From sequence record OK272472.1: 64,000 bases of DNA, one strand, 5' to 3'. The stretch's first letter is position 1. Each line of letters opens with the position of its first letter. Of the stretch, positions 3,856 to 38,694 are shown one piece after another. The DNA is from Escherichia phage JLBYU28. The notes below the pieces were generated by a model. The model searched no databases, was not told the DNA's origin, and was given only the letters and a program-made list of their open reading frames with translations. The translations under genes and the position numbers were made by a program.

Positions 3856-4419
3856 TTAACCTAAAAAGTCTTTTAAATTGCGTTCTGTGAGGTTTGCCGT
3901 GATTTTATCCAGTAGGTCGCAATACACAGAGCAATCCCCGCTATTCTGCACAATTTTCGCCATACTTAACAAATCTTCGTCAATATCTCCTAAATTACGG
4001 TTAGCTGTATCAGGTACAAAGAAAGGCGCATATATTGCACTAAATTTCGTCGAGTGAAGGCCAACAATCCAATCCTTATCAAAGTATCCGGTAAAACTGG
4101 CGATATCGCTCATGTTGTCACAAGAATAATCGTCCTCTAGCTCTTCCTCTGGGATATCCATTTCAATGACAATCACGTCCTGCGTTTCCATTTGGAAAGC
4201 TGCCGTAATAAGTCCAGACTCTAAAGCGTTTTGAATGCAGCGTTCACGGATATAAGAATCTTCCTCATCTTCCAGACATTCCGTTTTGATAACCTTGTTC
4301 ATTGGGTAAACGTAGAAACAATCGTCCATGTAGGAGCAGTTCCAGATTCCTTCCGGCTTGTCGCCACCATTCAGCAGGTTTACAAAGTTTTTGAGGGTAG
4401 TTCCGTGATAGCATTTCAT
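3856..4419 (-). CDS. hypothetical early protein (about 187 aa)
   Basis: Track ORF 3856..4434 starts at a TTG inside the family-B cassette; the ATG at 4417-4419 with GGAGAA SD is the likely start. Confidence 0.55.
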   Translation of the reverse strand: MKCYHGTTLKNFVNLLNGGDKPEGIWNCSYMDDCFYVYPMNKVIKTECLEDEEDSYIRERCIQNALESGLITAAFQMETQDVIVIEMDIPEEELEDDYSCDNMSDIASFTGYFDKDWIVGLHSTKFSAIYAPFFVPDTANRNLGDIDEDLLSMAKIVQNSGDCSVYCDLLDKITANLTERNLKDFLG

Positions 4420-4505
4420 TTTTAAGTTCTCCAATTTAGGATTTAGTGGTAAAGCTCTTTATCTGGGGCTTACTTTATCGAACTATAAGCCCCTTGTAAA
4501 GTACT
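4420..4505 (-). promoter_or_regulatory. family-B cassette copy 1 (TTTACA-17-TAAAGT on minus strand overlapped by inverted repeat GGGGCTTA/TAAGCCCC, then GGAGAA SD)
   Basis: ~85-nt element repeated 5 times nearly identically. Confidence 0.5.
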
Positions 4506-4709
4506 TTAACGATTATTTTTGACAACTTTTAAAACTGCAAGATAACCTAAGCGATAAGAATCACCGAAGAGAGTTCTACCCATGAAAGAATCCTCTTTGA
4601 TATCCTTTGCAGTGACAGTTTTTTCTACGCCGTGGAAAAGAACTATATCCCCAACTTTGATATCTTTGATGTGAGTAGTTTCAATGGTTAAACCGTTAAT
4701 AGTAGCCAT
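4506..4709 (-). CDS. hypothetical small protein (67 aa)
   Basis: ORF behind family-A cassette. Confidence 0.5.
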   Translation of the reverse strand: MATINGLTIETTHIKDIKVGDIVLFHGVEKTVTAKDIKEDSFMGRTLFGDSYRLGYLAVLKVVKNNR

Positions 4710-4808: not shown

Positions 4809-5213
4809 TTAGAGTTCTGCATAAATTGCATCACAGATATCACGAAAATCATGATTTGTCAAATTACGTTGTAACCAAGTGGCAAAGAAATCAGCGATTG
4901 CAAAATTGGCGTCATACTCGACGGATAGCCACACTTTCACGGCAAATCGAAACATTTTTAAATCAAGCTCTTTATTCATTATCTTTGATTTGCCTAACAT
5001 GTCAATCATTTCATATTGTGCGCCGTCTAGCGTGATACCTGCTGCAACGTCAGCCAGTGAGTTTTTTACGCTTTCAACGTCTAAGATAACACTTTGAATC
5101 TTCCCAATAATGTTGTCCAAAGTTTCATCCGGTGCAGATGATGTAATAACATTAATCCGGTTAACGGTCAAACGTGCTTTTAATATTGATAATTCACGGT
5201 TATTAATAGTCAT
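4809..5213 (-). CDS. hypothetical early protein (about 134 aa)
   Basis: Track ORF 4809..5228 starts at a TTG inside the cassette; ATG at 5211-5213 is the likely start. Confidence 0.55.
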   Translation of the reverse strand: MTINNRELSILKARLTVNRINVITSSAPDETLDNIIGKIQSVILDVESVKNSLADVAAGITLDGAQYEMIDMLGKSKIMNKELDLKMFRFAVKVWLSVEYDANFAIADFFATWLQRNLTNHDFRDICDAIYAEL

Positions 5214-5299
5214 TTTTAAGTTCTCCAATTTAGGATTTAGTGGTAAAGCTCTTTATCTGGGGCTTACTTTATCGAACTATAAGCCCCTTGTAAAGTACT
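5214..5299 (-). promoter_or_regulatory. family-B cassette copy 2
   Basis: Identical to 4420-4505 over ~80 nt. Confidence 0.5.
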
Positions 5300-5572
5300 T
5301 TATACTAAATGCAGTTTTTTACCTTTTACCATGATGTAACTCGATGCACTATTGCTTTGCACATCCTGATAAATTCTGCGCAAACGGCCTTTGTAGTGTA
5401 CTTTCCAACTAGTTGGAATCTTTTTACCGTATCCGGTAGCAGTTTTTTGGAGTCCTGCGACTTGCCAATCTAAGATGTGTTGCTCAGCTTGTAAATCTTC
5501 AAAGTGCATGACACCGCCTACATAGTGACGTAGTGTGACATTTAAGGTACGACCGTTGTTAGTAGTATACAT
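5300..5572 (-). CDS. hypothetical small protein (90 aa)
   Basis: ORF behind family-A cassette. Confidence 0.5.
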   Translation of the reverse strand: MYTTNNGRTLNVTLRHYVGGVMHFEDLQAEQHILDWQVAGLQKTATGYGKKIPTSWKVHYKGRLRRIYQDVQSNSASSYIMVKGKKLHLV

Positions 5573-6373: not shown

Positions 6374-6664
6374 TTACTTAATTTTCAGCTTTGCATAACT
6401 TCTCATTGTACGAATGGGGGATGTTAATGCTACGCGTCTAATGTATGCCTTTTTCGTGTATACATTTGTCTTCCCGATAGTGTTTACACATGTAAAAAGG
6501 TTTATCGGTGAATTTTTTAACTTCAACTGTTTATCAACCTTCACGCCCCACCTTACAGCAGATTGTTTTCCATTGTCAACCACTTTCCCGCATAACTTTT
6601 TAGCCATAACGCGAGCGTCATCACGAGTCTTTGCAGTAATTACAACGTTTTTAATAATAGCCAT
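6374..6664 (-). CDS. hypothetical basic small protein (96 aa)
   Basis: ORF behind family-B cassette. Confidence 0.5.
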   Translation of the reverse strand: MAIIKNVVITAKTRDDARVMAKKLCGKVVDNGKQSAVRWGVKVDKQLKLKNSPINLFTCVNTIGKTNVYTKKAYIRRVALTSPIRTMRSYAKLKIK

Positions 6665-6752
6665 CTTTGAATCTCCAATTTAGGATTGAGTGGTAAAGCT
6701 CTTTATCTGGGGCTTACTTTATCGAACTATAAGCCCCTTGTAAAGTACTTTA
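6665..6752 (-). promoter_or_regulatory. family-B cassette copy 4
   Basis: Repeat alignment by eye. Confidence 0.5.
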
Positions 6753-7133
6753 TCAGTTAATTTTGAAGATAGTTACATAACCATCGCTACCAATGATTTG
6801 CGACACTCCCGCTTTTTCTACTGAATAGCCCATATTTTCAAGATGATAAACAGCATCATCATAACCATATGCGCCACCCTGATAACGTCTTTTGTCGCAG
6901 CTTATCAGTTTTTTCCCACGTCCTGCAAGTGCATTCAGTACAGCTTTTTCACTTGATAGCGTACCATCTAACATGGTTGCCGTGTAATGGTTGATTCTGT
7001 TCCCGTTAATATCATACTTAAAATTGAATGCGTGAACAACGATAATGTTACCTTTAAAATTTTCATCAAGTGACTTCTCCAGTGCGTTGCGAAAGTTGTC
7101 TTTGTTGATGAATTTAGGTGCACGATATGCCAT
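6753..7133 (-). CDS. hypothetical protein (126 aa)
   Basis: ORF behind family-B cassette. Confidence 0.5.
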   Translation of the reverse strand: MAYRAPKFINKDNFRNALEKSLDENFKGNIIVVHAFNFKYDINGNRINHYTATMLDGTLSSEKAVLNALAGRGKKLISCDKRRYQGGAYGYDDAVYHLENMGYSVEKAGVSQIIGSDGYVTIFKIN

Positions 7134-7222
7134 TTTTGAATCTCCTAGTTTAAGGTTAGCTAATAAAACTCTTTATCTGGGGCTTACTTTATCGAACTAT
7201 AAGCCCCTTGTAAAGTACTTTA
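7134..7222 (-). promoter_or_regulatory. family-B cassette copy 5
   Basis: Repeat alignment by eye. Confidence 0.5.
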
Positions 7223-7429
7223 TTAGATATCGTAGTAATAAACTGCTGTCTGTCTTATGTGCTTTCTTGTATTTCTTGTAAGGTAGCAATTAGAATTAAT
7301 AGCCGTCTCTACATAGTTGCAGTAGTCAGCTTCTGATATTCTGGACCATGCGCCACATACTTGCATGTAAAAACGTTTTACCTTTGTGTTAACGTTAGTT
7401 GTAACCATCAATTCACGACTATAAAGCAT
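7223..7429 (-). CDS. hypothetical small protein (68 aa), first gene of the early array
   Basis: ORF; upstream on minus strand is TTGACT-17-TAATAT (about 7475-7503). Confidence 0.5.
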   Translation of the reverse strand: MLYSRELMVTTNVNTKVKRFYMQVCGAWSRISEADYCNYVETAINSNCYLTRNTRKHIRQTAVYYYDI

Positions 7430-7659
7430 TTTCGATTCTCCAGTTTAGGCAGTGGGCTTGCTTGCCCGTCTGATGCAAATATTAGATAACCATACTCAAA
7501 GAGTCAATAGGAATTTTAAAAATATTTTTGGCAAAAATGTAATGAAACGGGTGCGCGCGACTACCACAAAACAGAACTACAATCAAGAATTATTTTTCAA
7601 TCCGCTACAAATTTTTCTGTTGACTTTTATTTCCAGATGTGGTAGCCTTGTGAGAAATG

Positions 7660-7870
7660 GCGACATCCCCACCTGCACCCACCTACCTGCACAATTCTAA
7701 AATGATTTTTCTTGCCCGACCTGAGCGGGGTCTGCACGTTTTGAAAATGAAAAAGCTCTTTGGAGATTACCTGCACAGTTTGAAAATGAATTTTCTCTTT
7801 GGAGTTCAAAATTTTCTCTACAGATTTCTGTCCAGAACTCTACCTGCACAATCCTGAAATGAAAAAGCCC
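7660..7870. repeat. array of 4-5 degenerate direct repeats, consensus about CCTGCACA-N6-GAAAATGAA
   Basis: Repeat units begin near 7686, 7732, 7770, 7842; the track ORFs across this stretch owe their recurring LHxxKM peptides to the DNA repeat. Confidence 0.55.
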
Positions 7871-7935
7871 TCCTTACCTGAAAAATTTACCAGATAAGAA
7901 AGGCTTAGTCTATTGTGAATATTCTACAGAGTTTC

Positions 7936-8721
7936 TTAGTTCTTTGCGTCTAAGAAGGTAACTTCCGGTGAAGAGAAGACCGTCTCGATATCCTCATCAG
8001 TTCTTGCATAGATATATGTATCTGCATCACTGCCAAATGTTACGGCTATCCTGTGATTGCTCTTCGACAGGTGGGTAACTAGAGCGTTACTCAGAGACAT
8101 CTTCTCAACCGGAGGGTTACTTTGATGTATCTTACCTTTTCTTCGTCTGAAGAGGGTAACTGTATCATCTGTGAACACAACTACACCTGCAAAGTATTCT
8201 GGTTCACAGTAGTTCTTCCAACCTGAGCGTAACTTGTGGTACATCTCTCCTTCATAGACATACAGATACACATCTACACTCTTCATCACCTGATTGATGA
8301 TAACTGTGACGGCTTGAGGGTCCAACCCACCAATACCTGCACCAATCATAGGTAACCCAACTTTCTTCAACTGATTGACTTCACAGTATCTGTTAAGCTG
8401 TTTCAAAGATGATTCTAAAGCACTGTATCGGGCATCTTTACCAGTCTTAAGCTGAGTGTAAAGATTAGCTATACGGCCTTGTTCTAAACGTGCTACAGAG
8501 AAATTGCCTAGTAAATTCTCACAGGGTTTGTGGCCTATACCACCTGCATACAGATAAACTTCTGTATCGGTCTCATATGCTTTTGGGTAAAGTTTAGAAA
8601 TCTTGTCAGCGATACCTGCACCCATTAAATTCATACAGTTGCAACCGTGACCAATAATATCAAACTTACCTTTATCAAATGCGGAGAAGATACCCCCATT
8701 GATGATTTTTACAATACCCAT
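7936..8721 (-). CDS. macro-domain protein (TARG1/Poa1-like ADP-ribose-processing domain) with C-terminal domain of unknown function
   Basis: N-terminal motifs IIGHGCNCMNLMGAGIA and PMIGAGIGGLDP match the macro-domain glycine-rich ADP-ribose binding loops. Confidence 0.6.
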   Translation of the reverse strand: MGIVKIINGGIFSAFDKGKFDIIGHGCNCMNLMGAGIADKISKLYPKAYETDTEVYLYAGGIGHKPCENLLGNFSVARLEQGRIANLYTQLKTGKDARYSALESSLKQLNRYCEVNQLKKVGLPMIGAGIGGLDPQAVTVIINQVMKSVDVYLYVYEGEMYHKLRSGWKNYCEPEYFAGVVVFTDDTVTLFRRRKGKIHQSNPPVEKMSLSNALVTHLSKSNHRIAVTFGSDADTYIYARTDEDIETVFSSPEVTFLDAKN

Positions 8722-38437: not shown

Positions 38438-38694
38438 GTAAGCCTCTTTTAAGTAACTATTAAGTTTTAATCTTTTATCTTAACGTATACTATACGTTAT
38501 ACTTTAAAGCTTTTTAAAAGCTATTAAATAATCTTTTAAGAGTTTTAAAGTATCTGTATAGTTAAACTGTTAAGTAACCTTTTAAGTAAAAACCCACTTC
38601 GCAAAGATTAACACCTTGTCAAGTACATTGTCAACTTGCTTTTTATAATTTTTTGCAGTAATGTATGTGGTTAATGATTTTAGAGGGAGTAAAA
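38438..38694. promoter_or_regulatory. divergent intergenic control region with 17-bp palindrome AACGTATA-C-TATACGTT (38482-38498)
   Basis: Strand-switch point between minus and plus blocks; AT-rich with TTAAG words. Confidence 0.45.

Follow-up and report, generated by a model that had tools for sequence, protein, structure and literature searches.

What function, if any, is served by a short repeated sequence that a phage keeps in a stretch of DNA without genes? The question is raised by a gap in the early region of Escherichia phage JLBYU28, of which 64,000 nucleotides (sequence record OK272472.1; hereafter the window) were analysed. The window belongs to a Felixounavirus (subfamily Ounavirinae) and shares 96% identity with E. 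coli phage JohannRWettstein (Bas63). Its region 7200-8000 is 95.8% identical to Bas63 and has matches in 287 phage records. The gap itself extends over 506 bp (7430-7935) between a macro-domain gene and a 68-aa ORF, in agreement with the 500 bp or so given by an earlier reading of the letters without database searches (the sequence-only reading). In BLAST comparisons with Bas63, the gap alone is 97.8% identical, against 95.8% when its flanks are included. The genes surrounding the array are all on the - strand, and no tRNA or tmRNA was found in the 64-kb window. Felix O1 and its relatives are widely used as typing, biocontrol and therapy phages, and the Felix O1 genome paper explicitly gives both the timing of transcription and the start of replication as not known (PMC3185647). 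The landmarks of the locus are:

7936-8721, - strand: macro-domain gene (Pfam Macro), upstream neighbour of the gap
7855-7906, - strand: intrinsic terminator of the macro-gene operon, the "t13" of Felix O1, with a 17-bp hairpin (7906-7865) and a U-tract
7626-7683, unstranded: variable spacer between TTGACTTTT and the first full repeat unit (unit A), with two length-matched alleles
7620-7648, + strand: possible promoter directed at the array, TTGACT-17-TAGCCT, its -10 preceded by TGG
7540-7619, unstranded: conserved noncoding block between two promoter-like sites
7479-7507, - strand: promoter of sigma-70 type for the small-gene block downstream, TTGACT-17-TAATAT, preceded by an A/T-rich stretch
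7223-7429, - strand: first gene past the gap (68 aa), a hypothetical protein homologous to Felix01p030 (PHROG 5293)

The array thus lies between a terminator and a conserved promoter. Its units start inside the tail of the macro-operon terminator and stop about 180 bp short of the strong sigma-70 promoter of the terminal block. The terminator is listed as t13 for Felix O1 (PMC3185647), and its hairpin carries compensatory pairs across genera (RNAalifold). The promoter (7507-7479) is kept in Felix O1, Moogle and Ea21-4 and is annotated as such in phage ASO1B. Two minor features can be mentioned here. The - strand of the terminator stem (7865-7906) includes a perfect Shine-Dalgarno sequence, UAAGGAGG, sequestered in the hairpin. 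In Salmonella phage DaR-2019b (1727-1915 of locus L003) and similar records, an extra 189-bp small gene lies between the gap and the 68-aa ORF, and the array is untouched.

The sequence and a repeat finder both identify four full, co-oriented units on the + strand, with TGCAC starting at 7688, 7733, 7772 and 7845 (spacings in the window of 45, 39 and 73 bp), and one half unit. The repeat array pointed out by the sequence-only reading is therefore real. Its components are:

7670-7679, + strand: half unit CACCTGCACC, without the AAATGA half, found in part of the lineage only and not conserved in close relatives
7684-7710, + strand: unit A, TACC-TGCACAATTCTAAAATGA-TTTTT, conserved in Felixounavirus, Suspvirus and Mooglevirus
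7729-7765, + strand: unit B, GGTC-TGCACGTTTTGAAAATGA-AAAA-G, then CTCTTTGGAG
7768-7804, + strand: unit C, TACC-TGCACAGTTTGAAAATGA-ATTTT, then CTCTTTGGAG
7813-7836, + strand: second small repeat family, two copies of TTTCTCTACAGA in the long spacer between units C and D, related to CTACAAATTTTTCT at 7605-7618
7841-7867, + strand: unit D, TACC-TGCACAATCCTGAAATGA-AAAA-G, the A-run being the complement of the U-tract of the - strand terminator

The units share a two-part motif of 25 bp with the consensus YTAYC-TGCAC(A/G)-N5-(A/G)AAATGA, followed by 4-5 A or T and then by a G+C-richer linker. According to the repeat finder they are 65-86% alike and are separated by semi-conserved linkers of 12-50 nt. 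The two copies that had been described as carrying a trailing sequence are units B and C, which are followed by CTCTTTGGAG at 7756-7765 and 7795-7804. The spacer of six nucleotides proposed in the same description needs correction, since only 4 nt separate CCTGCACA from GAAAATGA. The motif is highly specific to this locus: TGCACA-N5-RAAATGA with at most one mismatch gives four matches in the 64-kb window, all on the + strand and all in the cluster, where shuffled sequences give 0.57 +/- 0.78 and none of 100 shuffles reaches four. In the rest of the Bas63 genome a looser regular expression returns one isolated match, on the opposite strand in the gene-105 region, which is probably due to chance. 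A dispersed phage promoter motif was rejected, as no other copies occur in the window or in Bas63 apart from this loose match.

The array is retained throughout the subfamily. In all four genera a gene-free spacer of 459-528 bp follows the macro gene, and four units are found in the same order and on the same strand in Felixounavirus, Suspvirus, Mooglevirus and Kolesnikvirus. Their spacings are 45/39/73 in Felixounavirus and Suspvirus and 45/41/75 in Mooglevirus, while Kolesnikvirus (Erwinia phages) exhibits a clean 39/37/37-bp tandem. In the Erwinia phages, the array is the sole part of the gap that BLAST still aligns. Among 30 distinct sequences, per-column conservation is maximal on TGCAC and AAATGA, where it exceeds that of the adjacent coding sequence. 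The copy number is mostly four, with three in the finno/Si3 lineage, and single units are occasionally point-mutated. Conservation of repeat number in relatives had been suggested as a check on the array: three to four copies are kept in four genera, and no ORF is conserved with them, an outcome that favours the sequence-only reading over its own refuting conditions.

No array was found outside the subfamily. IMG/VR, the genomes of 185,579 species (one each) and JGI metagenomes yielded Ounavirinae-like arrays only, and the other matches of a double-motif scan of the species genomes and JGI metagenomes correspond to unrelated tandem or coding repeats. This restriction suggests a phage-specific partner. 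Our literature search found no paper describing the array. Within the early region no noncoding feature is more conserved than this array, which is real, kept over deep divergence, specific to the subfamily and apparently undescribed.

The spacer preceding unit A evolves in a different manner. It occurs as two unrelated-looking alleles of 55 bp, one rich in G-runs (GGGGAGAGGGGGAGTAAGAGGGGGAGAGGGG...) in Felix O1, SUSP2 and Moogle, the other C-rich in the window and Bas63; Ea21-4 has a G-rich counterpart. The G-run-rich allele could potentially form a quadruplex or an R-loop. Some metagenome contigs end close to the array, probably through a break in this G-rich or variable stretch. The KhF1 record (KT184313.1, loci L111 and L112) starts and ends within the gap, but its two copies are just 90% identical, which makes a mixed-strain assembly artefact likelier than a terminal repeat.

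Several annotators have placed ORFs in the gap, and each unit contains an invariant ATG. Small protein-coding genes, such as "ORF14" of Felix O1 or genes 96 and 97 of Bas63, would account for both observations. However, the ORFs of the window (7657-7857 on the + strand, 7627-7809 and 7697-7849 on the - strand) are all repeat-derived, and the annotations of relatives conflict in strand and extent: genes 96 and 97 of Bas63, gene 115 of Moogle and gene 131 of Michonne are on the + strand, gene 88 of DaR-2019b is on the - strand, and no ORF is annotated in the gap of Felix O1 RefSeq (which dropped ORF14), SUSP2 or Ea21-4. No gap ORF is preserved in frame or in extent from one genus to another, as the spacings (37, 41, 73 and 75 bp) are not divisible by three. 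Inspection of the sequence identified no ribosome-binding sites for the gap ORFs, and the variable positions would lead to radical amino-acid changes. A coding function is therefore extremely improbable, and the view of these ORFs as artefacts of the repeat is well founded. The array has been repeatedly mis-annotated as assorted small hypothetical ORFs, and these results argue for dropping genes 96 and 97 of Bas63, ORF14 of Felix O1 and the corresponding calls in other genomes.

Do the units operate in an RNA? Transcription of the array on the + strand is plausible. The promoter-like site that faces it (7620-7648) has a highly conserved -35, while its -10 is poor in most Felixounavirus lineages (TAAGAG, TAGTCG). 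Its Ea21-4 counterpart is strong (TTGACG-18-TATACT, 10/12 matches) and stands back-to-back with the - strand promoter. In Felix O1, ORF14 (8042-8254, gene-sense strand) covers the spacer and units A-C and was positive in a one-step RT-PCR that was not strand-specific, with a maximum at 25 min, versus 5 min for the flanking ORF13 (macro) and ORF16 (PMC3185647). The 25-min class also includes ORFs 1, 3, 4, 6, 10, 17, 19 and 23 (PMC3185647); since it holds so many ORFs, read-through of a long sense transcript explains the ORF14 signal.

A transcript of the array could be an unstructured RNA of about 250 nt, extending from the + strand promoter-like site to near the reverse side of the terminator hairpin, or else a read-through sense RNA. 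Its four linear motifs might bind or titrate an RNA-binding protein, or it might act as an antisense to read-through transcripts. The co-orientation of all units with the upstream promoter-like site, the availability of a 3' hairpin and the 25-min RT-PCR maximum over units A-C are consistent with such an RNA, for which the irregular spacing of the units would be irrelevant. On the other hand, the poor -10 of most Felixounavirus lineages and the lack of a U-tract after the hairpin on the + strand argue against it, the A-run and U-run variants of the units would act very differently in RNA, and the 25-min class fits simple sense read-through. Structural analyses of the array do not support a folded RNA either. 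The + strand of 7655-7915 has a fold z-score of -0.34, no better than shuffles, and the value of -1.74 for the - strand results from the terminator. With nine sequences from four genera, RNAalifold gives -3.3 kcal/mol and a covariation term of -0.05 on the + strand, and only the terminator hairpin on the - strand. No Rfam family matches at its gathering score (best E-value 0.59, outside the array). The small RNA locus offered by the sequence-only reading is thus not borne out as a structured RNA, and an RNA acting through its linear motifs is possible but rather unlikely.

Such an RNA would resemble the protein-sponge RNAs of the CsrB/RsmZ type in presenting several short motif copies on one transcript with a terminator hairpin at its end. 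It would differ from them in that the motifs of the array are not in hairpin loops, GGA is not conserved across genera, Rfam gives no match and the + strand transcript is putative. Resemblances to the type I-E CRISPR repeat and to the ChiX sRNA are each confined to non-conserved linkers. A CRISPR or repeat-mimic mini-array, which calls for near-identical repeats of 28-37 nt and unique spacers, was rejected (units only 65-86% alike, semi-conserved linkers, no CRISPR-DR match inside the array), as was ChiX (resemblance in non-conserved linkers only, no Rfam match). Rho-loading, rut-like C-rich RNA was also rejected, the C/G ratio being ordinary.

Read on the - strand, each unit consists of a GC-rich segment followed by CTTTTTCATTTTC, the same tail as in genuine terminators (7864-7855, the 10260 region, and t5 and t13 of Felix O1), and unit D is itself a real terminator tail. 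The array may then be an evolutionary residue of tandem duplications of a terminator tail with its downstream sequence, either functionless or providing weak back-up termination. Only unit D has the characteristics of an intrinsic terminator (7906-7855), however, and units A-C have no hairpin. The A-run of two units on the - strand means that their U-tract has been destroyed. Moreover, across four genera the units have changed less than the coding sequence next to them, and the TGCAC half is invariant although irrelevant to termination. We consider this origin without a substantial function quite improbable.

The reading that we prefer, tentatively and short of calling it probable, is that the array comprises cis-acting DNA sites for a sequence-specific protein and exerts an accessory control where the macro operon meets the terminal early-gene block. 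The protein is probably phage-encoded. That the units work at the level of DNA and not of RNA, that they are bound by a protein and what effect this would have are our inferences. The four co-oriented two-part sites would bind the protein and form a nucleoprotein block at the boundary. This block might modulate read-through from the macro operon and/or the firing of the promoter-like sites of the gap. The outcome would be an accessory, timing-type control, dispensable in rich laboratory culture.

Several features lean toward duplex DNA. The centres of the TGCAC and AAATGA halves lie about 12 bp from each other, close to one turn of the helix. After ATGA comes a run that is A-rich or T-rich depending on the unit and that switches between lineages; under such switching duplex DNA retains its A-tract while an RNA would not remain equivalent, which leans to DNA. 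The length-matched alleles of the spacer lean the same way. Conversely, the non-register spacing, the unphased A/T tracts and the co-orientation with a + strand promoter-like site point away from duplex DNA, and the latter, with the transcription seen in Felix O1, fits an RNA-level role equally well. The spacings of 37, 39, 41, 45, 73 and 75 bp are out of helical register and the A-tracts exhibit no 10-11 bp phasing, so that cooperative binding on the same face is not supported. The distance between array and promoter (180-380 bp) also counts against the proposed influence. None of the nine neighbouring proteins includes a recognisable DNA-binding or Rep domain.

The proposal of iterons or operators in the sequence-only reading is therefore only partly upheld. 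In a broad sense it suits the data best, since the units look like directly repeated, sequence-specific recognition sequences at a single locus, kept in four genera. But their spacing is irregular (37-75 bp) and insertions are tolerated in Bas63, so that neither a classical origin nor an essential operator is indicated. As to the control of entry into the early array, it is only the position of the units that suggests it. Among known systems, the operator arrays of phage promoters (e.g. the p4 sites of phi29) are similar in having short A/T-tract motifs repeated near early promoters. The phi29 p4 site is CTTTTT-N15-AAAATG, and such arrays presumably build a multimeric nucleoprotein complex. 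The present array differs in being composed of direct and not inverted repeats and in lying 180-380 bp from the promoter, and no regulator is known in Felix-O1-like phages. Three other DNA-level candidates were discarded. Tandem sigma-70 promoters, with hexamers 16-18 bp apart in each unit, have no support in the window, Felix O1 or Moogle, where no promoter-like site lies inside the array; in Ea21-4 only, two units reach 9-10/12. Curved DNA was dismissed because the A/T tracts, though dense, lack helical phasing. IHF sites showed no enrichment.

Insertion data for Bas63 bear on how much the phage depends on the array. In the PhageMaP screen of Bas63, a preprint, "gene 96" is an ORF call lying exactly on units A-D. 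Its scores range from +0.24 to +0.98 in every replicate of the four conditions considered (E. coli S17, MG1655 and two defence-system-screen conditions), compared with -1.3 to -2.6 for DNA polymerase and -1.4 to -4.5 for capsid genes (bioRxiv 10.1101/2024.10.10.617714). Gene 96 thus scores like its non-essential neighbours, indicating, as far as these data extend, that barcode insertions in the array are tolerated in the laboratory. On these data, the element is not needed in the laboratory and any regulatory effect would be modest or conditional. The natural three-copy variants and the tolerated insertions fit a redundant, accessory element. As it appears to tolerate insertions, the array would be usable as an engineering site. 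Its conservation is striking and it is experimentally tractable, yet it is a familiar kind of element and is dispensable in culture. Identification of the partner that binds the array would open a first way into the regulation of the terminal early-gene block at its boundary.

Iterons, such as those of lambda ori, P1 oriR, pSC101 and T4 oriE, are made of three to five direct asymmetric units of about 20 bp in one orientation, near promoters and A/T-rich DNA. The array shares with these origins its direct asymmetric units, their single orientation and their location at a single noncoding locus near promoters. It might accordingly be an accessory replication origin, in which a phage initiator would bind the four repeats and open adjacent A/T-rich DNA, possibly aided by transcription from the neighbouring promoters. 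At least three units of about 17-25 bp are found at one genomic locus, in the largest conserved noncoding spacer of the region, which adjoins promoters. The density of A/T tracts is in the top 0.6% of the window, and a G-rich, R-loop-prone stretch lies just upstream in most lineages. Nevertheless, this stretch is replaced in the lineage of the window, the spacing of 37-75 bp is irregular rather than regularly phased and contrasts with the roughly 22 bp of the named origins, and the array is about as rich in A+T as the genome, with no distinct A+T-rich unwinding block. No initiator or Rep-like gene was found nearby. Insertions in the array were tolerated without loss of fitness in the PhageMaP conditions considered, in contrast to those in DNA polymerase, although origins can be redundant and the scores read fitness, not replication. 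Finally, the gap at 38438-38664 is an equally good origin candidate. An origin at the array is thus unlikely.

The gap at 38438-38664 is a divergent intergenic region of 227 bp where gene strand and GC skew flip. A near-palindrome of 27 nt and direct repeats of 23 nt, 46 bp apart, are found in it, and nowhere in the window is the AA/TT phasing at 10-11 bp stronger. Divergent early promoters or a replication origin may be located there.

The position of the array in the genome allows a further comparison. Felixounaviruses package with short direct terminal repeats, of 581 bp in Pr103Blw (PMC8303462). This repeat maps to about 650-1248 of the window, in about 1.6 kb of gene-free DNA flanked by convergent gene blocks, where the physical genome ends therefore fall. 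A terminal repeat or packaging site at the array was rejected, since the mapped repeat lies outside the gap. The array is located 6695-6852 bp from the right end of Pr103Blw as defined by PhageTerm, or about 7.6-7.75% of 88,421 bp. The small genes of the terminal block, at whose inner edge it is found, are transcribed toward the genome end, and each has its own promoter and terminator module.

This arrangement recalls the injection-stop region (iss) of T5, which likewise has conserved untranslated repeats at the inner edge of a terminal early-gene block, about 7.6-7.9% from the end and better conserved than the neighbouring ORFs. An in-silico preprint by Davison, which contains no wet-lab data, describes clusters of DnaA boxes in the T5 injection-stop region and proposes that they are functional (bioRxiv 10.1101/866236). 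TTATGCACA is among the consensus boxes that it lists for T5-like iss regions (bioRxiv 10.1101/866236). The array could accordingly be of the host DnaA-box type, with a host factor bound where the terminal block has its inner boundary. The Erwinia phages speak for it: all four Kolesnikvirus units, three of them CTATGCACA and one TTATGCACG, differ from TTWTNCACA at no more than one position, and 5-6 DnaA-box matches are found where 1.3-1.5 are expected. In the window, Felix O1, SUSP2 and Moogle, however, none of the four units is within one mismatch of this box, positions 1-3 being ACC, GTC or ATC, and those of the window are three mismatches away. The equally conserved AAATGA half would be left unexplained. 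The array has neither paired boxes nor the large inverted repeats or palindromes that make up the complexity of the T5 region, and the terminal repeat is only 581 bp long and 6.4 kb from the array. Furthermore, no two-step DNA entry is known for Felix-O1-like phages, and insertions in the array are tolerated in the PhageMaP conditions considered. Binding of DnaA or of a similar host factor is thus very improbable.

By analogy with T5, the array might even act as an entry or boundary checkpoint, with a cluster of sites for a DnaA-like host factor at the inner limit of a host-takeover module of about 6.7 kb (about 7.6-7.8% of the genome). We regard such a checkpoint as highly improbable. If it existed, it would imply that a contractile-tailed phage of the Felix O1 type delivers or expresses its DNA in two stages.

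The terminal block includes a second set of repeated noncoding sequences. Between its small genes, at 4417-4508, 5204-5303, 6662-6764 and 7125-7224, lie intergenic modules about 100 bp long, each made of a promoter (TTTACA-17-TAAAGT) and a hairpin. Their counterparts in Felix O1 were reported as direct repeats of 57 bp and 39 bp.
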